A stretch of DNA of 64,000 bases from Yuukianura sp. NJ FZ-2021 (Eukaryota). Below the pieces are notes generated by a model, which was given only the letters and a program-made list of their open reading frames with translations, searched no databases and was not told the origin of the DNA. This document shows positions 1,993 to 41,300 of this stretch, piece by piece. Position 1 is the first letter of the stretch. Every line of letters starts with the position of its first letter. The DNA lies in NCBI GenBank assembly GCA_046563655.1, contig CM102284.1, forward strand, positions 8,804,001 through 8,868,000, read 5' to 3'. The translations under genes were made by a program, and so were the position numbers.

Positions 1993-4591
1993 AAAACGAA
2001 ACAAATTCCTACGAAGTGAAATCAAAAATTTCGTTTGTTCAAAAACTGGTAAGAAATTTAAAAAAAAAGTTAATTCCAACTTTCACTGACTTTCACTTTA
2101 ATTTTACTTTTTTGTTTTGAAAATTTCAGTTCCTGGATCTAGGATGGGTCGACTTATGTTGATAACAATTTTAATTTTGAAAAAAGTTGAGTTTAAAATG
2201 CGGCACAGACGACTTTAAAAACTTCATTTAAATTTTTACGTGAAGACTGGAGCGAGATCCCCACAAATCCAAAATTTTGCCAGTTTTAATTTTGTCCTTA
2301 TTCTAAAAGTTATTAATTATTAATTAAGTTAAGTTTAGAATTAATAAAATTTCAACAAAAAATTGCGCTGTTTAGGAAAACTGAAAAATGATGGCGAGGA
2401 TGAGAGTGAAAGTGGACTTCCGGATACCGTAAAGTTTCCAATTATTATCTAACTCTGCAATTACTTTAAATTCATTCAAAATCACTTCAAATTCATTTGA
2501 ACTACTCAAAATATTACTAAACTTTCACCATATTGCTGAAATTTCGAAACCAAGTGGATTGAAATTTTTATTGGTCCACTGACGCCCATTTTACTACTCA
2601 AATCCAACAAGCTTTTGCTATCGACCGAAGTGTTTCTGTTCATTTTACTCTCTTTTGATCAAATTAATCGCCTCAAATGTACATAAATGGTGCAGATGAT
2701 TGAATTGGAAGAGAAAGTCCCCCCGAGGAATTCACATCCAGCCCCACCAAACAAAAACATGGTGGCTCCGGTGGGACTCAAGTTGGTGGCTCTCGGTGGG
2801 ACCAGAGACCCACTTTCTCCAGCACTTTCACTCTGTTGACTCTCCTTCTTCTACTGGATTTTATAAACACAACTGACAAAACACACAAAAAGATAGTGGA
2901 AAAATGAAAAAAATTCATCTTAAATTGAAAACACAATTGAAAAGTGGAACTGACTACAAAATGTAAAGTGTGTTGTACTATCAAAATTTTGAAACTTCTG
3001 AAAGCGTTTGATGGTGCTGTAAAAAGGAGAGGGACTGTGTCAATTCTTTGTAAATTTGCATTTTGAGGGAGAAAGCAGAGAGGGATTTGGTTGTTATTGT
3101 GTTTGATCCAATTTTGAATAGATTTTGTACAGAAGACTCAATCAGATCCACACTCTACTCAAAAAAGAGAGTCTTTCACAGAAATAAGAGTTGAATTGAG
3201 CGTCTATTCAATTCAAAAGTGACGGAAGTTCTGCTTTTTTTGAAAAAAAGAAAAACTTGAAACTTTCTTTTTGTGCTGGAAAAGAAAACAGGGATTTTAA
3301 AGGAAATGAAAAAGATAAGCTCAGATCCGATTTCAAATCCTTTTCAAACTCTCACATTTTAAAAAAAATCTCACTTTTCAAAATCTCAATTTTCAAAATT
3401 TTCATTAAATTTTACTAAACCTATTACATAATTCAATGATAAGGTGAAAGAATACTACACCTTATTCTCCCGTGGTTTAAAATTTTGATTTTTTTGAAAT
3501 TTCGAAATTTGATTACTTTGTTGTACCAAAATGAGTTAAGGACAGGAGAGCCCTTAAGTGAGTTTAAGTGTACGTGGGCGTGGCCAAGGGACAGACAAAG
3601 AAAAGGGGCGTGGTCAGCAGGAGAAAGTGCATTTGGACACACGGAAAAGCTTTCTCCGGGGACACGCCCCCAACTCCCACCCACAAATCATAACAACTCT
3701 AATTTCAAATTACTCAAAGTTAATTTAAAAGGAACTTTGTAATTAAGTGGTGCGTTAATTAGTAATTAGTGACTAAAGAGTGAGAGTGTATTTTGAAATG
3801 GGAGCCCTTAGGAGTGCCTTAATTGAGTGGACAATGGAGGTGAGGCAGAAGCCCTTCAAGGGCCCTCCTTCAATTTCACACACAAAGAGTGTCCACCTCC
3901 ACAAGGAAATGAACTTGGTTCAAATTAGTTTGTGAAAAAGAGAGGTGGATTGTGTCGTGATACTTGTGGGGTTGCGGGGTTCAGGGGATCAAAAGTGAGG
4001 GGGTTGCGGGGTTCGAGGGGGATCAAATTTGAGGGGTCAAGTGGGGGTAAGGTCACCCCCTTCCTTTGTCCTCCCCTTCTGCACAATTGACTTTCTCTCA
4101 AGTGAAAGTGGCGGGTGATTAAAATTTCAATTAGGAAATTGAATGGAGAGGAAAGGACTCAACTCTAAATGGCTCCCACGCCGCAAATAGGGAAAGTAAA
4201 TTAAATTTCTAAGCTCACATTTTTTAAAAAGCTTATCTAAATTTAAAATTTTAAACAACTTTTCAAAACTTACTTATTTAAGAGCTAAGATTAGAAAATT
4301 TTGTAAAAATTTAAAATCAAGTTTACAAAAACACAACACAAAAATATTTCAAGATTTTGAAGATTTATTTCTATTTGTATTTTTCAAAATATGAAATTTG
4401 TAATCAATGATTGATTCCTCGTAATTAAAGTTTTTGTAATAAAATAAAAATTTCCAGTAAAATCTTGTTCCGATTCTTCTCTTCAGAACATTTTCTTCGA
4501 TTTCTTGCAGATTTCTCAGTTTTTGTTTGGTAATTTTGATTGTTTGAGAAGGTCGTTGACCTTTGGTTGACTTTTGGATGAGTTGAGGAGG

Positions 4592-4990
4592 TTATTGTTG
4601 TTGTTGTGCATAGCTGGGGTGGACACTTTGTTGATCTGCATACTGCTGATCTGGTGGTGGTGCGTAACCTTGTTGTTGATTTTGAGCTGGCGCGTACTGA
4701 CCTCCGCCAGCGGCGGCCTTAGCAGCTTTGCGTTTTGCCAGGAACATTCCCAGGAAGACTCCGATGATGAGGAAAATGATGGCTGCGAAAATGAAGCACA
4801 AGCATCCGACGAGAGCCAATCGGCCGTTGCGTTTCGAATTGAGGCATTCTAAGTATTTATCGCGTGTGTCAAGCTTTTTTTTGCAACAATCTTGATCGTC
4901 GTTAATATGATCAGACTCCACTGCCAGTTTGCCTTTGAGCAGTTCCTTAAGCTCTTCGTCACTCACGATTCTGCAGGGTGCTCCACTCAT
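4592..4990 (-). CDS. Small membrane protein, paralog 1 of 4 (132 aa; C..CC..C N-region, ~28-aa hydrophobic segment, KRK, YAPPP/Q-rich tail)
   Basis: Clean ATG-TAA ORF, clearly similar to three neighbouring ORFs. Upstream non-coding exon with GTAAG donor at 5115 and acceptor at 5018-5019. Confidence 0.8.
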   Translation of the reverse strand: MSGAPCRIVSDEELKELLKGKLAVESDHINDDQDCCKKKLDTRDKYLECLNSKRNGRLALVGCLCFIFAAIIFLIIGVFLGMFLAKRKAAKAAAGGGQYAPAQNQQQGYAPPPDQQYADQQSVHPSYAQQQQ

Positions 4991-5588
4991 TCTTCCGGTT
5001 ACTTTTGACTTTGCAGTCTAAAAGACACAAAAATATTTTAGGTCAATGACCTTTGGAATGACCTCTGACACAACTTTTGTCACAAAAGTGTAAGAAAGTT
5101 ACATGAAATGCTTACCAATGCAACAATGTGGTCCGAAACTACTGGAATTGACGTAGATCAAGTACTTGAGTGCGGAATTTCCTGGACGAGGAACTGGATT
5201 CGTCGAATACTGCCAACCGAGGGAGAAAAACACGTCTTGCTGGGTCGACGGTCAAACGTCAAATGAACTAAAACGCTGAGGTGTTCAGAGAAAACATTTT
5301 CCAAATAGTAAACAACATAGAAACTTTAACTTTCTTTTGTTGTCATGACAACACTTTCAAATTCAAATCGAAATTGAAAAATATTTTTTAACGATTTTTT
5401 TTGTAGATGATTTTATTCTTCCAGAAATTATGAAATTTTGACGATCAATTTAGTCGTAAATCCTGAGCTCTCATACTATGTTTCGGCAGCACATTTCGGA
5501 TGCGATGGGAACCAAGCGATGTCGTTGACCTTTGGCCCACTTTTGGTTGACCTGAGAAGGTCGTTGACCTTTGGTTGACTTGGGAATG

Positions 5589-6206
5589 TTATGGTAGTTG
5601 TCCAGCACTTGGCTGGACACTGGGCTGATCTGGATACTGCTGATTCGGTGGTGGTGGTGCGTACATCGGTTGTTGATTGGGAGGTGGCGCAGTCTGACCT
5701 CCACGGCCGCCTTGATTAGCTTTCCGTTTTGCAAGGAACATGCCCAGGAAGAATCCAGCCACGAGACAGATGATTCCCATGAAGAGTGCTGCCAAGCATC
5801 CCACCAGAGCCAATTGGTTTCGTCGCTTCTTATCCAAGCAACTGTTCATGTCTTCACCCAAAGTATCAGCGTCTGCCTTACTCTTTACCTTGTTGAGTTT
5901 AGATTGAGTTATTTCAAGGTCTTTGCAGCAATAGTGCAAGTCGATCGACAAGTCCGCAGCGTGTCCGCCAACTTCCTTGGCTACTTCCTTAGCCGTCTCG
6001 TAGGTGAAACTGGGACACATTACTACTAGTAGATGACTTATACGTAGTCCTCCCAATACTCCTAGCCCTCCTCCTCCTCCTCCTCCTCCGACTGGCCATC
6101 CTCCTCCGAATTCTCGCTCTGGTCTTCCTCCTCCGAATTCTCGCTCTGGTCTTCCTCCTCCGAATTCTCGCTCTGGTCTTCCTCCTCCGTAAGCCGGGTC
6201 GTACAT
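5589..6206 (-). CDS. Small membrane protein, paralog 2 of 4 (~205 aa; N-terminal GGGRPEREF x3 repeat and poly-Gly added)
   Basis: First ATG after the acceptor at 6226-6227 is 6206 (MYDPAY...). Core HYCCKD..C..KKRR-hydrophobic-KRK-YAPPP is shared with the paralogs. 5'UTR exon donor near 6313. Confidence 0.75.
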   Translation of the reverse strand: MYDPAYGGGRPEREFGGGRPEREFGGGRPEREFGGGWPVGGGGGGGGLGVLGGLRISHLLVVMCPSFTYETAKEVAKEVGGHAADLSIDLHYCCKDLEITQSKLNKVKSKADADTLGEDMNSCLDKKRRNQLALVGCLAALFMGIICLVAGFFLGMFLAKRKANQGGRGGQTAPPPNQQPMYAPPPPNQQYPDQPSVQPSAGQLP

Positions 6207-6826
6207 TGTTCCTGTCGCTGTTGACCTTAAATAGAAACAGAAATTAAGATTTGACCTTTCAATTTTTTTTGGTAAAAGTATGGAATTCCAAACAATTTTT
6301 AGGAAATGCTTACCAATCAAACAACTTCCTCCAAAACTACTGGAATTCAGTACCTGAGTGCGGAATTTCCAGGAAATTTGAATTTGTTGAAAAAAGTATG
6401 ACACGTACTTCCTGTTGTTGATGCTGCTGCTTGCTGGATGTCGGAGGTCAAAGGTCAACTGAACGACTGAACCCAAACAAACGTTTTCAAACAAAACAAT
6501 TTCTGTCGCCTTTTACATGGAAACTTTTAAACTTTTTAAAAACAAAATAAAATCTGCGTTTACTGTTTTTAGAACAAAAAATATATAAACATTTGGAAGA
6601 TTTATTTTCATTTGTGTTTCTATTTAAGTTTGAAATTTGTAACCAATTGATTGTTCGTAGGTTTTAGTAATAAAATTAATTTCTAAGTAAAAATCTTCAT
6701 CCGCTTCTTTCTTCACAAAATTTCGTGGATTTCCCAGTTTTCTTCGCAAATTTTGATTGTTTGAGAAGGTCATTGACCTTTTGTTGACCTATGAAGGCCT
6801 TTGACCTTGGTGTTGACTTGAGCAGA

Positions 6827-7297
6827 TTATGATTGTTGTGCAGCAGTTGCTTGATTCGCGTACTGCTGATTTGGTGGTGGGGCGTACATCGGTGGCTGAT
6901 TTGGAGGTTGTGCGTACATCAGTTGCTGATTTGGAGGTTGTGCGTACATCAGTTGTTGACTTGGAGGTTGTGTGTACATCGGTTGCTGATTCGGAGGTGG
7001 TGCGTACTGTCCTCCACCTCCACCTTGATTACCTTTCCGTTTTCCAATGCATATTCCGACGAAGATTCCGATGCCAAAGCAGAGGATTCCGACGAACAAT
7101 GCTGACAAGCATCCGGTGAGAGCCAATCGGTTGTTCCGCTTCCTTTTCTCGCAAGCAAACAATTCTTTTACTGTTTTAACACCATCCTTGCAACAGTCCT
7201 GGGCGTCCCATAAGGCATCTTCGCGGCTGGTGCCCTTAGCATGAGTCTCTGCTATGAGCTCATTCACCCGTCTGTTACTCGCGCAATCTTCTCCCAT
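6827..7297 (-). CDS. Small membrane protein, paralog 3 of 4 (156 aa; tail of ~10-aa MY(A/T)(Q/P)PP(N/S)QQ repeats)
   Basis: ATG-TAA ORF; DCCKDG..CEKRKR-hydrophobic-KRK; 30-bp tandem repeats in the tail. Confidence 0.8.
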   Translation of the reverse strand: MGEDCASNRRVNELIAETHAKGTSREDALWDAQDCCKDGVKTVKELFACEKRKRNNRLALTGCLSALFVGILCFGIGIFVGICIGKRKGNQGGGGGQYAPPPNQQPMYTQPPSQQLMYAQPPNQQLMYAQPPNQPPMYAPPPNQQYANQATAAQQS

Positions 7298-7867
7298 CTT
7301 TGCAGTGTAGTCGAAAAACCTGCATCAAAAAAATGAGACTCGTTGGGGTCAATGACCTTTGGAATGACCTCTGACCTAAAAGGTACAAGAAATGCTTACC
7401 TATCAAACAATGTGGTCCGAAACTACTGGAATTGGCGTAGATCAAGTACTTGAGAGCGGAAGTTCCTGAACGAGGAACTGGATTAGTCGAATACTGCAAA
7501 GCGAGGGAGAAAAACACGTTTTGCTGTGTTAGAGGAGGTCAAAAGGTCAAATGAACCCGAACGCCAACATTTTCAGAGAAACGTTTTCCGACTCGTAAAC
7601 AACCTGGAAACTTTCTTTTGTTGCCATAACAACACATTCAAATTCAAAACGAAGTAAAAAAAATATTACGATTTTTTTTTTCTTGTAAACGATTTTATTC
7701 TTCCAGGAATCCTGAAATTTTGGCGATCAGTTTAGTCGTAAATGCTGAGCTCTCATTGACTTCGGCAGCACATTTAGGATCCGATGAGAACCAAGCGAAG
7801 TCGTTGACCTTTGGTTGACTTTTGGTTGACCTGAGAAAGTCGTTGACCTTTGGCTGACCTGAGAAAG

Positions 7868-8344
7868 TTATGATTGTTGTGCAGCACTCGGGTAGACACT
7901 GGCTGGATCCGCATACTGCTGATTTGGTGGTGGGGCGTACATCGGTGGTTGACTTGGTGGTGACCCGTACATCAGTTGTTGACTTGGTGGCGCGTACATC
8001 GGTTGTTGACTTGGTGGGGCGTACATCGGTTGTTGATTCGGAGGTGGGGCGTACTGGCCTCCACCGCCGCCTTGATTAGCCTTGCGTTTTGCAATGCACA
8101 TTCCCACGAAGATTCCGATGATGAAGAAAATGATAGCTGCGAAAAGAAAGCTCAAGCATCCGACGAGAGCAAATCGCCCGGTCCGCTTCCTTTCGGCGCA
8201 TTTTCTTGTTTCTTTTTGTGTTGTGGTGCCTTCTTGGCAACAGGCACGGGCGTCCCACAGCGAATCTTCGCCGCTGTCGCCCCCATAATTATTCATTACT
8301 ATGAGAGCCTCCACTTCCGCTTTAGTGTTGCACCTTTCTCTCAT
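7868..8344 (-). CDS. Small membrane protein, paralog 4 of 4 (~158 aa)
   Basis: First ATG (MRERC) at 8344, after an acceptor near 8367. ACCQEG..CAERKR-hydrophobic-KRK followed by MYAPP(S/N)QQ repeats. Confidence 0.8.
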   Translation of the reverse strand: MRERCNTKAEVEALIVMNNYGGDSGEDSLWDARACCQEGTTTQKETRKCAERKRTGRFALVGCLSFLFAAIIFFIIGIFVGMCIAKRKANQGGGGGQYAPPPNQQPMYAPPSQQPMYAPPSQQLMYGSPPSQPPMYAPPPNQQYADPASVYPSAAQQS

Positions 8345-8915
8345 TTTTTCAGTCCAGTCCAAAAGCCTGGAACCAAAAAAAAATGAGACTCATGGGGTCA
8401 ATGACCTTTAAAATGACCTCTGACCCAATTTCTCTCACAAAACATAAAGGCTTACCAATCGAAACAATGTGGTCCAAAACTACTGGAATTGACGAAGATC
8501 AAGTACTTGAGTGCGGAATTTTCTGGACACAAACTTGGAATACTGCGAAAAGATGCGGCAAGTACTTCCTGCTGCTGCCCCGTAGAAAGTCAAAGGTCAA
8601 AGGTTATGTTCTCCACAAAAAATTTGCAGGTTCATCACTACGAATATTTAGTTGCGACGGGTAGACTTTCTACACTAAAATTAAAAGAAATTATTATTAT
8701 TATAGTTATTTATTTATTTATTTATTTAATTGCCACTGATACCCTGTTTAAATATTTGCCAAATATAAAAATAATAAAAATTGCCACTGATAGTTTAAAT
8801 TTTTTATTCAATATTTGTAACTCTTCATTGTCTAGATAAGCATTTTAGAACCGTTAGCAGTAGTTTTTCAAAATGTTTGTAAAAGTACTGGCAGTAGGTA
8901 TTGGCAGTATTTTTG

Positions 8916-10791
8916 TCAGTCCGAGAGTGACGAGGTGATAAGCGATGAGATGATGCAGAGCATAAAAAATGAGCCAATCGCAACCAAGAAAATGATTCTG
9001 CCAAGAGAACTTCCATACCACGTGATGAGAAAGTAGAACAGCCCAACTACTCCAAGCGCCAATATTGCAGCGATTACAAATACAAGCACCGTGGAAATCC
9101 ATGTACAGCATGGTTCAGAAGTATCCTTGCAGCATCTCGGTGCTGGAACAGGTACAGGATGAATCGGCTCAGGATCGCTGCGTCCAGCAGCAGCAGCAGC
9201 GCGATTGGCCGAATCATCGTACAGCGCAGCATCAATGATTTCGTCCACAGTGGCTCTCGGAATCGGTCCAGCTCCACCCTCTCGCAGTCCAGCAGCACCA
9301 TCTCCTTCTAGATACTTCCGCAGCACATACTTCGAGTTTTCCGACAGTTCTTTGATCTGTGTTCCTTGGAGACGTAGTTGTCGTAAAGCTGAAACTTCTT
9401 CTAAGCCTTGCGACGGAGCAAAAATGGCTTCAGTGACGTTGCAATTCCGGAGATCCAGAGTTTCCAAAGTGTTTTGATGAGCACAGAGCACTTTTCGGAC
9501 TAATTCATCCAGGTTTTCCAGAACTGGCGCACAGGCGTTTTCATCCGTCCCGAGAATGACGTTCTGGAGTTCGCATCCCAGGAAGGTAAGTGCAAATTTT
9601 TTTAGTTTCAGATGTGCCAGGTCGGTCATTTGTCCTAGGCATGATGGAGTAGCAGCATTCGGAATGTCATAGAATGCCAAACTTGTCAAATGGACATGCA
9701 CCGGATTCTGGGCCAAGGTCAGCAGAACACGGTTGACCGTGGCGATTCCGAAACCGGTAAAAGTGACACTTTGAAGCTGAGTAGCCGAGAGTAAAATTTC
9801 TCTGATCATGAGTGGATGGAGATCTTGAATTTCCAAAGTGTCGATTCGGTTTCGATGGACCGACTGCCGACCGAATTTCAATTTGTGTCGGAACAGTTTC
9901 AGGACATACGATGACTCAAAAATTAGAGTTCGGAGGTTCACGAATGCTGGCAAGTTGGAGTCGCGTTTTGACGGTAAAAGTGATTCGGTATTGACGAGGC
10001 AATGAAAAATACCGGTCATCTGAAGTGCTTCTAAGGATGAGCAGAAGTGAATGATTCTTTGAAAAGAAACGAGTGATAAGATGCAGTTGTTGAGCCGAAG
10101 AGATTTGATATCGGGTCCGTTTTCGTGAAAGAATTTCCGAACCACTTCGAACCGGGTATCGACCGAAACGAAACGGTACTTCGGACAGTGGAACTCCGTG
10201 ATGAGACTGCTTTTTGAAAATTCAGCGAATTGGGCAATCAGCACTTCCGTTTTGACATGATGACTGTAAAACACACAAAATTTCAAAAATTTAAACTTTT
10301 CAAATTTTGAAATTTTTTAATTTTAAACTTTGTCATGTGACTAACCTTGCATCAGGCGGGTATGACAGCATGCTGGGATCAAAGTAGAGACGACCTCTGG
10401 TCCAAAGTGGTCCGATTGTCACTTGACCTTTGACCTTTCCGGTTTCGTGGTCACCGCAAATAGCCCGATTCCACTTTTTGGAGACCAGTCGCAGTGTGAG
10501 CAAATCAGAGAAGCCAATCAGGGGTACGATAAGAGCCAAAGCCTAAAAAACACAAAATTTCGACAATTATTTTCAAAATTTTATAATTTTTTTTTGTTAG
10601 AAATTAGTTTTGAGTCGTACCTGTCCGAGTTCTCCGTCCGAATTTGAACTGGATACGTGTCGAACGCTTTTCAATGATCTTGACGGCGCATGATGACGCT
10701 GATGGTGATGGTGATGGTGGTGACCATGACGAGATTGCGGCTGTTGTGGACGTGGACGCCGCGGGCGGTCAATTGTAGCTTCTGACAGCAT
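8916..10791 (-). CDS. F-box/LRR (RNI-like) protein with His-rich N-terminus and two C-terminal transmembrane segments; exons 10791-10621, 10542-10346, 10263-8916 (~570 aa)
   Basis: Three exons splice in frame (phase 0, phase 2). F-box-like LALIVPLIGFSDLLTLRLVSKKWNRAI; LRR-like motifs IKSLRLNNC, LEALQMTG, LRTLIF, LETLDLRNC, LRQLRLQG; terminal hydrophobic helices WISTVLVFVIAAILALGVVGLFYFLITW and IIFLVAIGSFFMLCIISSLI. Confidence 0.75.
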
Positions 10792-11628: not shown

Positions 11629-13041
11629 CTAGCCGTCAACGGGAGGTCCAAGGTAAATCATGGACACTTCAGTGTTACCGTAAACAGCTGAAATGGCCGG
11701 GTAGAGTCGCTCTGTCGCCGGTAATCCACGAAATGCTACTCCGTAGAATTCGTTATCCCTTTCAAAAGAGAGCGTGTGGTCTTCACAGTCCAAAATCACT
11801 CGAATCCTGTCTCCAACCTGGGAAAAATCACAAAATTAAACTTCAAAACTTCGGGAAAACGGATTTTGAAAATCCAAAAATTTGAAAATTCAAAATTTTG
11901 AAATAGTCTAGAAACGTTCCGTACCTGGTACCGCGGTGCATTGTTTATCAAGGGATAATTTCCTTGTACTCCGTGGTGTAGAAGAACGTTTTCCACGAGA
12001 TTCCAACCCCAGGATTGGTCATCTTGACCCAGCAATGGAACGTATCCTAAACGTTTTATAAATCATTATTGTTAGTTAATTGAAATTGTTAATTACATTG
12101 TGATTTATGATTAATTTACTAATTTATAGCTACCTTGAGCTCTCATTTCAGCTCTAGCAGTGGCTACTCCAATAACAGCTACAGTTCCCAAAGGCCCCTC
12201 CCAAACAACTTCCCATGAATGTCGCCCTTGATGGAATCCTGAAATTCAAATATTTTCATAAAATTTTAGCAAATGAAAGAATGTGAATTTCAAAATTTCG
12301 AATTTGGAGCTGCTTCTGAACGTTACCGATTTTTCCGCGGACACCGTCTGTACTCTGAGCCACCGGATTGCGGTGAATAGTAAATCCGTTAGTTCTGACA
12401 TAGATGTTACGTGAGCAATCACTTGGATTCCAGGCATGGTAAAAGGCTCTCAGTTTGGATTTGTAGCTTTGCAACTCCGTGAGAAGACGGAAGTTGTGGG
12501 CATCATGTGGAAGTAGAGACTGAAAATGATATCTCCAAACGTCATTGTTCTCGTCATTTACTATTCGGCCCCATTCGGAACAGACGAGACTTGCGGACAC
12601 TAAGTCTTGCAGAGGGAGAAACGTAAAGACAAATTCCATAACGTTTTCGGGCAAATCCATGATGTGGGTAGTTTCTCCAACGGGTTCTTCCGTTTCTTCA
12701 GCAGGAGAAAACGAAGAATACTCGAAATCTGGACTTTCTTCTTCCGTTTCGGACTCTTCACTTGTAGAATATGAAACGACACGGGAATGCCTGTTCCCAT
12801 TGGTATGCGGAGGAATGAGAGGAAGTTGATGGTGGGTGTGACTATGGTGACGCTGTCGATTGCTATTCGTTGTGGCTACACTGCTGTTGCCAGTAGCATT
12901 GGCTGCTGCTGCTGACGACGTGCCAACTTTTGATGAAAAGGAGACTGATTTAGGAGACTTGTGAGCTCTGTCTTCTCCAACGATTACGTGATGTACTTTG
13001 TCCTTGTCATCTTGAGATTTCCGATTACCGGAACCGGACAT
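11629..13041 (-). CDS. Fsn: F-box/SPRY domain protein 1 (Fsn / FBXO45 orthologue); exons 13041-12327, 12238-12134, 12046-11925, 11817-11629
   Basis: F-box [23 protein letters not shown] hallmarks [79 protein letters not shown]. Start codon inferred. Confidence 0.93.
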
Positions 13042-35300: not shown

Positions 35301-38300
35301 AGAGTAGAATCCATTGAGTCCATAATCCGTAATTTTTAGAACCCACCGAGCATCCACTACGCAGTTATGTGAAGTGAGACATCCATGCACCTTCACAAAA
35401 CTAAGGTGCAAGTAACGCATTCCCTAAGCAAATAAACGTTTATTAGCCTCCATTACCTTTCACTTCCACCTACATAACCTTACATGATCCTACATAAAAC
35501 ATAACTTTACATAAAACATAACGTAGCTGGTTAGGCTAACTATAAAACCCTAAAGCCAATGAGGTTTAGACGATTAGGATTGTTCGACACGAGAAAAAGA
35601 GAAAGTACGGGAGAAAGTGATTTTAACTTGCGAAAAAAAAACAATCTTTACATGCACAATTTCTAATAAATGTTCCTAAATTTTCAAATTTTGTGAACCC
35701 CATTTGGAATTTCATTGAGAAAATGCAATTTTTTTTTTCAAATTTGCGTTCTCTGCTTTTACTTTCAATGGGAATGGGATTTCGAAAAAGTGAATAGACC
35801 TATTAATGTCGTAACCCAAGAAGAAAAAGTGAAAAGTCTGATTTTAAGTGGTAACTTTCAACTTTCACTTTCCTTTTTCCAAATGTTCAAAGTTTGAAAT
35901 GTGATTTGAGGAAAAATTTTAAATGAAAAAAAGACGTCATCTACAGACATAACAGAAAGTTTGAAATTCTAAATTGAGACGCTTGATTGCCTCTCTGACC
36001 TCATTTTTTGGTGATATGAAGGTGAAAATATAAAAAATGTTAGGTTTTTTTTTTCGAAAGCGTAATTTTGACTTCTTTTTTTTCAAAAATGTAATCTTGA
36101 TTTCAATTTGATGGAGCGGGACAATAGTTGCAGGAAATGAAATAAAAGGAAATTGGATTTAGAAGAAAATGAGAGAATGGAGGAGAAAGTGACCAAAATT
36201 TCGAACTCTAGTGACCAAAAAACGACTTTTTTGATTTTTTTTTTCAAAAATTGAAAAACTTACTCGAACTAAATCGGTGAGTAGAGAGAGCTTAAAGGCC
36301 CAATCCAATTTGATATCATTTTGTTGCAAAATTTCATACAGAGATCCACGAGAGCAGTATTCCCACACAAGTGCTGGGCGTGGTTCAGTCAAGCAGCCTA
36401 ACATTGCCGCCACATTTTCATGTCGGAGTCCATTCAACTGAAATTCAAAATTTCAAAAATCTTTTCCAAAAACTAAAAAATTTTGGTTTTCTTACGTTTT
36501 CCAAAACACTCATTCCCTTCATCTTAATTTGAAGAGACTCCGTTCCTCCTCCTCCGAGTTTTCTCAAGTGTACTAAATCCCCCTGTGTTCAAAAAAATTC
36601 AAACTTGATTAAAATTGTTCCAGAATTGAGCTTTTTGTGCAAAAATTTTTGCATAACGAAATTATGCTCCACCTCCTCGTTTGCTAATTTGAACGAGAAA
36701 CGGAGCTTGTTCTGTGAAGCGTGTGACACGCTTTCCCTCTTTTTAAATTATTCTCTTCACTTTTTGTTCTTTTTTAAAGAGTTTTTTTTTAAAAAGAGAA
36801 AGTTAACAATACCCTAGAGAACAAGCAAATTGGAAACACTGCTGTCGTTTTTTGAAAAAGTGGAGGAGGGTGTTTTAAATTTTGAAAAGCCAGCATCAAG
36901 TGGAAGTCAATTCGGAAAAAAACAGAAAGTAGAACAAGCAGCGCCATTCTTAAAGCTTCCGGCGTCTCTTCAGTGTTGAATGCAAATGATTATTTCAATT
37001 CCCACGCTAAATTTCAGAAATTTTACTTTACACACAAAAAAAAAACGAAGATTAATTCAAAAATTGGAGTTTTAATTTCTGCTTTCTTGGACTTTCTAAC
37101 TCAATTTTGTAAACGTGACGAACAAAGTTTCAATTCTTTTTAAACGTTTCAATTCTAGCTTTGTTTTGTGAATTTCTTAGCAGAATTTAAAGAAGTTTGT
37201 ACAAAAGACGCTTAATTTGATTTCAATTAAAAAGAAAATTCGATTTTTTTTTCATTTCAACTGAATGATTCAATTTAAACTTTCTCTTTGTCTATTTTGC
37301 CTTTTTTGTCTTCTTTTGTGTCGTTTTTATGTATTTCGTCTTCTTCTATGTCGTTTTGTGTAATTTTTAGATTTCATGAAAGCTTGAACACTGTCAAATG
37401 AGTTGCTACGACAAAATGGCGACGATTTGACTTTCACGGCGTAAATTTGTTTGAAAAATGTCGCGTTTTGGCGCTTGTGATTTCAAATTTTTGCCGTGAC
37501 TCCGATGCGTCTTGCTCTGCACAGCAATATTCAGTTCCTGTAGAAATTTTAAGTAACCAACTGCATGTCACAAGACACAAATTCTGTGAAAAACCGAAAC
37601 GACTAAAAAAAATCGTGTCACCGAGAGGTAATGACATTTTATTATACTAGGTCAACCTCAAAAATTTGAAATTCTTCAACTTCAAAAATTTGACATTCTG
37701 AAATTTTGAATTTCAGAACCCCGAGAAAGTGAAATGTCCTTGGCACAACCAGAGACGTATATTCCGAAATGCAATAAATCGTGGAATCGCATTCCAAATC
37801 CATGGACTCTCAAGACGTTAGCACTCAAAAGCATTCTACGCAGCCTCAGTTGCGTCAAACATCCGCTAAGACACGCAAAAGGGGCGGAGTTTCGAGAATA
37901 CTTGGCAGAAAATTTACTTCCGGAATTTTTTGACGATTTGATTCGCGTTGCTCACTTCAATATGCTCAAACCAGAGAGTATGGTCAACGTCCTCCATGCA
38001 GTTCCACCTAGAGTCTATGCAACCTGTGTCGATCTACTTGGATTCTACGAGTAACTTTCAAAAAATTCGAAATTTTCAAAATTTTCAAATTTTCAAAATT
38101 TTGATTTTTGGAATCCTAGGGGCACGGAGTGCTGCAAACCTGACAGCAGTTTGAACTGGATCTTTGGATTTTTGCCTGACATTTGCTTGGGGACTTCAGC
38201 GATGACCAAATTGGTGAACCTTCTGCTAAAACTTGACCTCTCAAAAATTCAAACCATCCGCCTCTGGGCTAAAGACCGAGCTATCAAGGACTCTTACTTT

Positions 38301-41300
38301 CCTCATGTGCTGACCAAAGTGGTCAACCTCACGTCGTTGACCATTCGCGGAGACGTTAACGACCATTTCCTGAGAGTTTTGGGGTCAACATGTCACAGTT
38401 TGCGGTCATTAGATGTTGAAAGGTCAAGCAAAATCACACGTTTGGGACTGTTTAACATGGTGCTTCAGAAGGCTATCAGTGGCCGAACTCCATTCATACC
38501 CATAGCCGTTATGTTGGCACGTGACCGTCGACCAATCGCTGCATCGCTCCAGTACATGAGCCTGACCATTGGAAATATCGGATTGGACAATTTGGAAATC
38601 ATGGCGCGACTTTTGAATTCTTACTTGGCCACTACTCTCCCGGAAGCCAAAATGTTCAAATTCGGGTCAACCATGGGTCAAGATCTATTCGTCGGGTCAA
38701 CGGTCAGTCAGCATCTCAAAATATGGTCAGCCATGAGTCAAATGTTGACCCCCGGGTCAACCATAAGTCAGCATTTGGACGGCGGGTCAACGACGGGTCA
38801 AAATTTGGCCGCCGGGTCAACGACGGGTCAACATCAAAGGTCAAGGGTACCTCAAACCCTTGTGCCCTTGGAGTTCAACCTGCCTTGGAGCCCTGCATTA
38901 GAGGTCATTGACCTCCTCCGGGTCAAATTTGCAAACTGGATGTCACATGACCTTTGGCCTTCAGTTAGGGACATCCTGACCTTCACCTTGCTACATATCG
39001 GAGACTGCCAATTGGATGTCTACCGGAGTCCAATCGACCAATCACTGTTCATCTACGCTCATCGAACTTCGGGCCAATTTCTGCACGTTTTCTACAAAGT
39101 GGCTCCCTCTGTCGGCGTAACTCACTTGACTTCATACTGGGACACTTTTACATGGGATGTGGGCCAAGTCTGTCAACTCTCGGACATTGTCGTCCATGCT
39201 CCAAATCTAGAAAATCTCCAAGGACGGATCACCGGAATCTGGGCCGGCGCGAACCAAATTTTTCCGCGCCTGACGCGCGTCCAGTGCTGGATTCTGGACG
39301 ATGCTACGCTCATTTCTATGCTCCAACTTTGCCCAAACTTGAAATATCTGGATATCAAAAACGTCCGGGCAGTTGAGCATGATCCAAATGACCCGCCATT
39401 GCCAATTTTAAATGACGAAATGCTTTCAAGACTGTTTCAAGTGAACCCTGACCTCTGGCCAAACATGATTGAATTTTTGGTCCGACCAACCAACTTGACC
39501 AAACAGAGTGCCCTGGACATGACCAAAATGTGTCCAAAACTACTAAGACTCGGTGACCTCGAATGCTGGGACATCACGACAGAAGAAATCAAAGAACTGA
39601 ACAAAATACTGTTCAATTCTCGGTCGCAGTGTTCTCTCGTCGTCCTCAGTTTTCCACCACAACGCAACTTCTAAACACAAGCTCAAGTATCAAGTTTTCC
39701 AATTTCAAAATTTTTGAAGAATGCATCAAAATGAAGTTTGATTTTAAAATTTCGCTTTTCTTGAAATTTCAGAACATACTTCATCCAAAGTGTAACTCTA
39801 AACCTAATGCTCAACCAAAAACTGACAACGAAATCATCGTCTCAAATGGATTTCTGCTACAACTGACAACGGTTCCTCTCAAACTTTCTAAATTTGGAAA
39901 ACTTTGAAATTTTGAGAATCTAATCTAATTTTTTTCAAAATTTTGATTTTTAGACGTGATTTTACTTTTGAAAAGCAAGAAAATACGAACCATGGAATTC
40001 GTTGAACCTGAAAAATACAAATTCGTACGAAATTTTTTTGTAAACTAGAAAGTTAAGTGTGAATCAAAAATTGCTAATAAAATCGTATTTCCAAAAAATT
40101 CAAAATGTTCAAAATTCTGAAACTGTTTCAAAATCTTCAAAACTGTAAAACTCATTCTTTTTACCTTGTACCGTGCCTTGTTGTCTCCAGGAAAAGAGAT
40201 GGAGTCTGTTTTGACTAGATTGGAGGCACTTGAGTGTTTGCGTAGTGGACCATGCGGTACTTTCAGCAAATCAGGTTTCTCCTCTGGCCCACAAATTCCA
40301 GCCGCATTCCCACCAGTCAAACTGCAACTGAATGGCAGCGGCAACTGTTCAAAAAATTCGAAATTTCAAATTTTGAACTACTTAAAGTAAAAAAAAGGTA
40401 GCCTCGGACGCTAGCACGCCATTACGACGAACGAATTGCTCCGAAACCAATTCCTCCGAAAGGTAAATTCTTAGGTAAAGCTGCATCTAAAAGCACTATT
40501 GAATTTTTCGACATTACGTCTACGGCTGGATATCCAGTGGAAGAAATGGACGAAATGGATAAATCCAAAGGGCGGAGCTCTGCCCGCAGGGTTTGAATTA
40601 ATTAAATCCAAAAAACTTAAACAAGTCAAAACATCGTTCAAAAGCGAAGGAAATATCGTTTTTGTGAGTCTTAAATAAGTAATTCATTCTAACGATGAAA
40701 AAAAACTCTTTCTCATATCATTCTGTAATTTTAAATTTGAATTTATTTTGAATTTGGCTCTAAATTCTTCATTTCGAAGGGTGGAGCAACTGGTTTTGTA
40801 GCAATTCATTCCGAGCAATGTGCTTCGGAGCAATTCATTCGGAACAATTTGCTTCGGAGCAATGGCATGGAACTGCCCGAGCCGTTCGAATATCCTAACA
40901 TAAACATATTGCTTAGTTTTTAAGTAATCTTTGGTATCAAAAATTATCGGAGAAAGTCTAGCATGAATAGAGTCAAGCTGGAAGTTGATGTTTGTCACAA
41001 AGAGAAAGTTTGCAGCCTGTGGGTGTAGTGGAATCCAAAAAACTAAAAATTGAAAAAAAAATCGAAAAGACTAAAAAAGTGTAAAAAATGTTGAAAATGT
41101 TTGAACAGGAGTGACTTGCTGTTGACTGTGGCTCCATATTTGGGAATGAATTTGTTTACTTTCTCCCTTCGGCCTCAAAAGAAGATTGATTTCCTTTTCC
41201 TCGCTTTGCTACAAAGGAACTTTTATTTATTCTTTCCCCCGCACCAATTCCGTAGAGAAAACCTTAAAAGAAGAATGACGCGCGAAAGGCGCGAAAAAAA

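Follow-up and report, generated by a model that had tools for sequence, protein, structure and literature searches.

The subject of this report is a gene on the minus strand of a 64,000-nucleotide stretch of DNA from Yuukianura sp. NJ FZ-2021 (the window; positions 8,804,001 to 8,868,000 of contig CM102284.1, assembly GCA_046563655.1), whose predicted product joins an F-box, a solenoid of leucine-rich repeats (LRRs) and two hydrophobic helices at its C-terminus. We consider it reasonably probable – at a rough probability of 0.6 – that this locus (10791-8916) encodes a 571-residue F-box/LRR protein of the FBXL type, held in a membrane through a helical hairpin at its C-terminus. An earlier note on this DNA had proposed a membrane-tethered receptor of the Skp1-Cul1-F-box (SCF) type, with a tail sharing its origin with an adjacent array of four small genes. 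The receptor half of that proposal stands, because the F-box/LRR protein carries its hydrophobic helix pair in the same exon as its repeats and because this design recurs in nine family sequences, which makes a membrane-tethered SCF receptor the best reading of the locus; the shared origin with the array is not borne out.

Structure of the F-box/LRR gene

A three-exon gene of animal type is predicted between 10791 and 8916 (minus strand), in which canonical GT/AG joining yields 1716 nt encoding 571 residues; the predicted ends coincide exactly with those of the interval singled out in the earlier note, and the reading frame is preserved through both predicted splice junctions. Exon 1 (10621..10791) begins with an ATG at 10791 and runs for 57 codons to the donor CAG/gtacga. 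It encodes a low-complexity, His/Arg-rich N-terminus, not hydrophobic in character, with final residues that begin the F-box. Intron 1 (10543..10620; 78 nt, GT...AG) has a T-rich acceptor and is followed by exon 2 (10346..10542; acceptor ttttttag/, donor AAG/gttagt in phase 2), which encodes the second half of the F-box and a linker. Intron 2 (10264..10345; 82 nt, GT...AG) leads into exon 3 (8916..10263; acceptor gttttacag/), with 448 codons and a stop that cover the LRRs, a linker and the two hydrophobic helices. An AATAAA polyadenylation-type signal lies at 8803..8808 on the same strand, approximately 108 nt past the stop codon.

Read simply as open reading frames (ORFs), the same DNA gives a stop-free minus-strand frame of 466 codons from 10316 to 8916, with two shorter open frames (10542-10333 and 10881-10597) upstream of it. 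The long frame contains the LRRs, RATVDEII, RCCKDT and both hydrophobic stretches, as had been claimed for a single uninterrupted exon. Exon 3 and the adjoining 3′ flank contain one donor-like site (at 9222), and no T-rich acceptor was seen there; since there is thus no plausible intron inside exon 3, the LRRs and the two hydrophobic stretches belong to one exon.

The LRR solenoid and the F-box

An LRR solenoid of the FBXL, or ribonuclease-inhibitor (RNI), type occupies 9363..10184 (minus strand; approximately residues 27-300 of the exon-3 translation), as judged from the secondary structure of an AlphaFold2 (AF2) model and from fold matches. Derived from an eight-row alignment, the exon-3 model has a mean predicted local distance difference test (pLDDT) score of 67.6 and a predicted template modelling score of 0.61, and displays regular strand/helix repeats. 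Its top matches in VIA-align are FBXL17 (Z 18.0; root-mean-square deviation 5.0 with 268 residues aligned), FBXL2 (Z 17.0) and Rad7 (Z 16.7), and its LRR matches in Foldseek include COI1, FBXL17, SKP2, TIR1 and FBXL2. Because the RanGAP, NLR and ribonuclease-inhibitor rows trail the top VIA-align matches by only 2-3 Z, the fold is best described as RNI/FBXL-type and not as that of one particular FBXL protein. The solenoid lies directly C-terminal to the F-box, the arrangement that defines the FBXL subfamily, as indicated by the AF2 model, VIA-align and a profile match to SKP2.

The F-box spans the junction of exons 1 and 2, with the first part of the motif lying across it, and was scored on exon 2 without the portion contributed by exon 1. 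Scored in this way, the stretch at approximately 10453-10512 (minus strand) belongs to the family by a narrow margin according to the curated profile PF00646 (20.7 bits against a cut-off of 20.5), with PF12937 at 20.4 bits against 24.3. Among eight homologous sequences scanned (protein matches carry P numbers here), P0006 has an F-box above the cut-off at 21.5 bits, and P0001, P0004 and P0012 have sub-threshold matches at the equivalent N-terminal place, such that the window protein and four of the five homologues that extend that far all carry an F-box signature at one N-terminal position. Compared with profiles of solved structures, the family profile matches SKP2 (E 1.2e-5), the alignment running in register from the latter F-box half into the first LRRs.

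The C-terminal tail

Approximately 130 codons remain open beyond the LRRs, both here and in L001 (a contig encoding the closest relative, described below) and in gene-called relatives. They include a linker helix (9186..9257, minus strand; exon-3 residues 336-359, at low AF2 confidence) containing the string VDEIIDAAL, which is also present in L001, and a CCKD motif (9123..9134, minus strand; residues 377-380) situated seven residues before the first hydrophobic helix; at the aligned position this motif is absent from L001 and from the other relatives. The two predicted membrane helices follow at 9015..9101 (residues 388-416; hydropathy peak 2.88) and 8922..9011 (residues 418-447; hydropathy peak 2.63), both on the minus strand and both with AF2 pLDDT values of about 80, and hydropathy alone delimits segments 382-418 and 417-447 of the exon-3 translation. 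Hydropathy and the AF2 model thus agree on two C-terminal hydrophobic helices of membrane-spanning length in a protein with no signal peptide. The turn between the two helices comprises one to a few residues, so that both ends of the pair would face the same side of a membrane.

Relatives and conservation of the design

A full HMMER scan of 1.84 billion representative sequences returned eight proteins at E<=0.001, three of them at <=1e-10 and one at <=1e-30. P0001-P0006, at 22-44% identity, align across the LRR part, and six of the eight proteins combine an F-box half with LRRs and a hydrophobic C-terminus. P0008, at 137 residues, matches just the tail, and P0007 was removed from the family as a generic LRR protein that lacks a hydrophobic end. 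The contig of P0008, L001, carries a 464-codon ORF (136-1527). Over 451 residues this ORF shares 43% identity with exon 3 (E 1e-114), and it continues without a break from the LRRs, by way of the VDEIIDAAL helix, to two hydrophobic helices, with an exon-2-like piece directly upstream. Identity between the window and L001 proteins is 52% in the LRR part and 25% in the hairpin. Also on L001, downstream of this ORF at 2763-3470 (plus strand), is an ORF with a CAP (cysteine-rich secretory protein) domain scoring 49.6 bits.

A hydrophobic C-terminus was found by hydropathy in all nine family sequences checked (the window protein, L001, P0001, P0010, P0003, P0004, P0005, P0012 and P0006), and seven of the nine have either two hydrophobic segments or a single stretch of 56 residues or more. 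Because the relatives and L001 share the progression from LRRs to a hydrophobic end, the membrane tail is an ancient element of this small family. The F-box/LRR/two-helix design has thus been passed down within a small and divergent family and is no quirk of this locus.

Other searches added no members. A search for related loci with the exon-3 protein matched 170 stretches, none of which was confirmed; L002, which P0008 brought up along with L001, has a 31-residue hydrophobic match only and is not a family member, and look-alikes proposed by a protein language model all fall below the 0.9 level and are treated as leads only.

The neighboring array of small genes

The tandem array lies 3′ of the F-box gene on the same strand (4592..8528, minus) and is not part of that gene. 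It consists of four small genes for single-pass membrane proteins, with coding sequences at 8344-7868, 7297-6827, 6020-5589 and 4990-4592; four paralogs had been reported immediately 3′ on this strand, and both the genes and the strings quoted for them are present. The paralogs share an N-terminal cysteine, a CC[KQ][DEK] motif, a further cysteine, a basic patch, one hydrophobic helix and KRK, followed by C-terminal tails with a glycine and then a Pro/Gln/Tyr-rich composition; two of the four contain PPMY, a PPxY-type motif. The tandemly duplicated DNA is 70-86% identical in blocks of at least 100 nt, and the repeat blocks span 4335-8528.

Each copy includes a conserved upstream block ending in G/GTAAGC, with donors at 8455, 7399, 6313 and 5115. 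These blocks (8455-8528, 7399-7471, 6313-6374 and 5115-5187, minus strand) show conservation equal to or above that of the N-terminal coding region, and probably represent a non-coding first exon and promoter retained through duplication. No ATG-initiated frame joins a block to its coding sequence, which is why a non-coding first exon is the simplest interpretation, and no signal-peptide exon was found. The frame of the third paralog remains open upstream (6020-6209, minus strand), through three GGGRPEREF repeats and a glycine run to another ATG.

Pairwise ratios of nonsynonymous to synonymous substitution rates (dN/dS) among the paralogs are 0.34-0.69. A word-indexed protein search with the paralog alignment gave no homologues among 382 candidates, Pfam at E<=10 returned nothing meaningful for the four paralogs or for the tail of the F-box protein alone, and AF2 models of the small proteins are of low confidence (mean pLDDT 55.7). 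CYYR1/WBP1-like proteins, which are WW-binding adaptors, resemble the paralogs in being small, in having cysteines before one membrane helix and in their Pro/Tyr-rich tails; they differ in that the paralogs have no Pfam match, no homologue found and no signal-peptide exon found, with PF10873 (CYYR1) and PF11669 (WBP-1) unmatched by all four even at E<=10. With language-model scores of 0.79-0.83, below the 0.9 level, these look-alikes are leads only.

The array genes and the F-box gene are transcribed as separate units; a poly(A) signal belonging to the F-box gene lies some 280 nt ahead of the first repeat block. We regard the array as an independent, fast-evolving and separate tandem duplication, and its genes not as derivatives of the tail of the F-box protein.

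Comparison of the tail with the array

The tail had been said to echo the paralogs, and a hidden Markov model (HMM) of the four paralogs scored against it had been proposed as the check. Models of the whole paralogs, of their core and of the part preceding the membrane helix were therefore scored against the last 140 residues of the window protein, with shuffles of the tail, either full or segment-preserving, as controls. Standard scoring gives -8.0, -11.6 and -2.9 bits, respectively, values that are reached by 1409, 2000 and 1085 of 2000 full shuffles and by 1933, 2000 and 875 of 2000 segment-preserving ones, and the proposed check thus places the tail at or below the shuffled controls. With the composition correction off, the scores are 3.0, 4.8 and 2.6 bits, reached by 17, 11 and 8 of 2000 full shuffles and by 88, 52 and 8 of 2000 segment-preserving shuffles; this is the sole alignment-type result that leans toward a common origin of tail and paralogs.

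The remaining comparisons are at chance level. Smith-Waterman scores of the tail against the paralogs range from 29 to 36 and are reached by 19-194 of 500 full shuffles and 54-265 of 500 segment-preserving shuffles, and the best local alignments pair hydrophobic-helix residues in the case of paralogs 1 and 4 and cover nothing but the CCKD motif in that of paralogs 2 and 3. Semi-global alignment gives z scores of -1.26 to 1.12. When the family tail is compared with the paralogs by hhalign the probability is 0.9%, over nine columns corresponding to the RATVDEII/RRVNELI helix, and it is 0.3% for the whole family against the full paralogs. There is no cross-match at E<=10 in tblastn searches of the window with the tail and with a paralog, and none in the tail DNA by blastn with 7-nt words.

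What is unusual is the CC[KQ][DEK] motif, which was defined after it had been seen. Among shuffled sequences it turns up in 63 of 200,000 tails and in 793 of 200,000 exon-3 proteins. Six-frame ORFs of 60 residues or more (32,142 residues in all) contain it six times – in the four paralogs, in the tail and in one off-frame ORF. The duplicated DNA unit does not reach the F-box gene, ending at 8528 and leaving a gap of 388 nt to the stop codon at 8916, and L001 has no paralog-like ORF within 2.2 kb downstream, where the CAP-domain ORF lies. A shared origin by fusion or fission accordingly finds no support in the HMM, hhalign, tblastn and blastn comparisons, at the repeat boundary and in L001, which lacks CCKD.

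A probable membrane-tethered receptor and the alternatives

What we observe is a domain order and its conservation, and from knowledge of SCF ligases we infer how such a protein might work. The F-box would dock onto Skp1-Cul1-Rbx1, and the two helices (of about 29 and 30 residues, with a very short turn) would insert post-translationally as a hairpin, such that the F-box, the LRRs and the extreme C-terminus would remain cytosolic. A flexible linker of approximately 70 residues would keep the LRR surface near the bilayer, where it could pick substrates at the cytosolic face of the membrane for ubiquitination.

Several points weigh against this reading. The F-box score is marginal, with the exon-2 match covering profile positions 18-37 of 43, and the Pfam LRR models fall below their cut-offs on exon 3 (LRR_4 at 19.2 against 27 bits, and LRR_1 at 16.3 against 20.6), as they also do for the relatives, the repeats being divergent. 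Membrane insertion is a prediction drawn solely from hydropathy and from an AF2 model of eight sequences, and P0001 and P0006 have just one C-terminal segment above the hydropathy threshold. The low identity of the hairpin to that of even the closest relative is a further point, and selection on the hairpin is unmeasurable by dN/dS because synonymous sites between the window and L001 are saturated. Lastly, the relatives are all ORFs from environmental assemblies, for which 'hypothetical protein' is the sole name (among seven matches looked up, P0007 left out), and a word-indexed protein search with exon 3 alone found no match among 8000 candidates and with the family alignment returned P0003 only.

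Some of these points would also fit a membrane-anchored LRR protein with a degenerate F-box that no longer recruits Skp1, acting as a scaffold or receptor outside SCF complexes. Every member scores about at the PF00646 cut-off or below it (the best values being 20.7 and 21.5 bits, and the others 13.6-16.8), and the Leu-Pro with which a canonical F-box starts is replaced in the window protein. However, the recurrence of the signature at one N-terminal position, the in-register alignment of the family profile with the F-box half and LRRs of SKP2, and the presence of SCF receptors as the top fold matches all favor a working F-box, and we consider its loss unlikely. A mature product without the membrane tail, whether through unrecognized splicing, early polyadenylation or lack of expression of the gene, is quite improbable: the gene model is a prediction from genomic sequence and the donor-like site at 9222 lies within exon 3, but that donor has no matching acceptor downstream, the frame stays open past the LRRs in L001 and in gene-called relatives as well, and a hydrophobic C-terminus is retained among members as little as 22-44% identical.

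The alternative that derives the tail and the four paralogs from one module (helix, CCKD and membrane helix) by fusion or fission, with the small proteins as partners or decoys, draws on the close spacing of the F-box gene and array on one strand and on a common order of short amphipathic helix, CC[KQ][DEK] and hydrophobic helix. The rarity of the motif in shuffled tails, its concentration in the paralogs and tail, the HMM scores above most shuffles when composition is uncorrected, and the fact that the sole stretch aligned by hhalign is the RATVDEII/RRVNELI helix also speak for it. Against these stand the standard HMM scores and the chance-level outcomes of all the other alignment methods, the end of the repeat DNA at 8528 with every paralog having its own upstream exon, and the L001 tail with neither CCKD nor a paralog-like neighbor; moreover, the motif was chosen after the fact, and cysteines beside membrane helices are common. 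We therefore find a common module very unlikely. Fission, with the paralogs arising from a copy of the tail, may be compatible with an old tail, its positive support being four residues. It is similarly far from probable that receptor and array form one functional system without homology, in which the small proteins, with Pro/Gln/Tyr-rich tails in the cytosol, would occupy the same membrane as the receptor and be its substrates, regulators or decoys, or that the array stems from a partial duplicate of the tail diverged beyond detection; adjacency, strand and the four-residue motif are the only positive hints of either.

Other features of the window

The window looks eukaryotic, with short GT/AG introns and multi-exon genes that include an E2F/DP-type factor, a PHD-finger protein, a guanylate cyclase and an F-box protein. 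Another F-box gene, unrelated to the one described above, is situated 1.5 kb farther upstream on this strand (12256-13041, minus), with an F-box-like match of 39.3 bits; the end of its exon resembles the start of a SPRY domain, as in FBXO45/FSN-1. At 37710-39674 (plus strand) there is a 539-codon open frame with no Pfam family and no hydrophobic end. It contains an FBXL-like repeat with a weak match to the family profile (hhalign probability 8.8%) and may encode a further divergent LRR protein. Rfam and tRNA scans of the window gave no matches.

Comparison with known systems

SCF receptors are mostly soluble, and those acting at membranes use lipidation or a targeting sequence. In searches of open-access full text, no F-box/LRR family was described as having membrane helices at its C-terminus, and the exact wording 'transmembrane F-box' did not occur. 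If the reading of a membrane-anchored FBXL protein is true, a family with its own two-helix anchor would represent a distinct means of confining cullin-RING ubiquitination to one membrane surface, and would serve as a simple natural system in which to study the choice of membrane substrates by such ligases. The value of the finding is limited, since everything beyond the sequence is what we infer.

SKP2 (FBXL1), FBXL17 and FBXL2 have the same arrangement as the window protein, with an N-terminal F-box passing directly into an RNI-type LRR solenoid. They differ in sequence, with 11-16% identity to the window protein in structural alignments, and the solved FBXL structures that were matched have no C-terminal membrane helix pair, the matches barely passing residue 366 of the model. 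FBXL2 offers a closer parallel as an FBXL protein held at membranes through its C-terminus; its anchor is a prenylated CaaX box, consistent with the title of PDB entry 6o60, a structure of FBXL2 with geranylgeranyl transferase and SKP1 that the exon-3 model matches. The window protein, in contrast, ends in SLSD after its two hydrophobic helices and has no CaaX box.

No particular sequence kinship with FBXL4 was seen: it is absent among the listed Foldseek, VIA-align and structure-profile matches of the window protein. For the mode of working, nonetheless, it provides the nearest analogue, being part of an SCF-FBXL complex seated on an organelle membrane: according to the pertinent passages of PMC10308361, SCF-FBXL4 acts on the mitochondrial outer membrane to turn over the membrane-anchored proteins NIX and BNIP3, and FBXL4 needs an N-terminal mitochondrial targeting sequence to do so. 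On this account, the two differ in how they would reach the membrane, FBXL4 through a targeting sequence at its N-terminus and the window protein through a predicted hairpin at its C-terminus.

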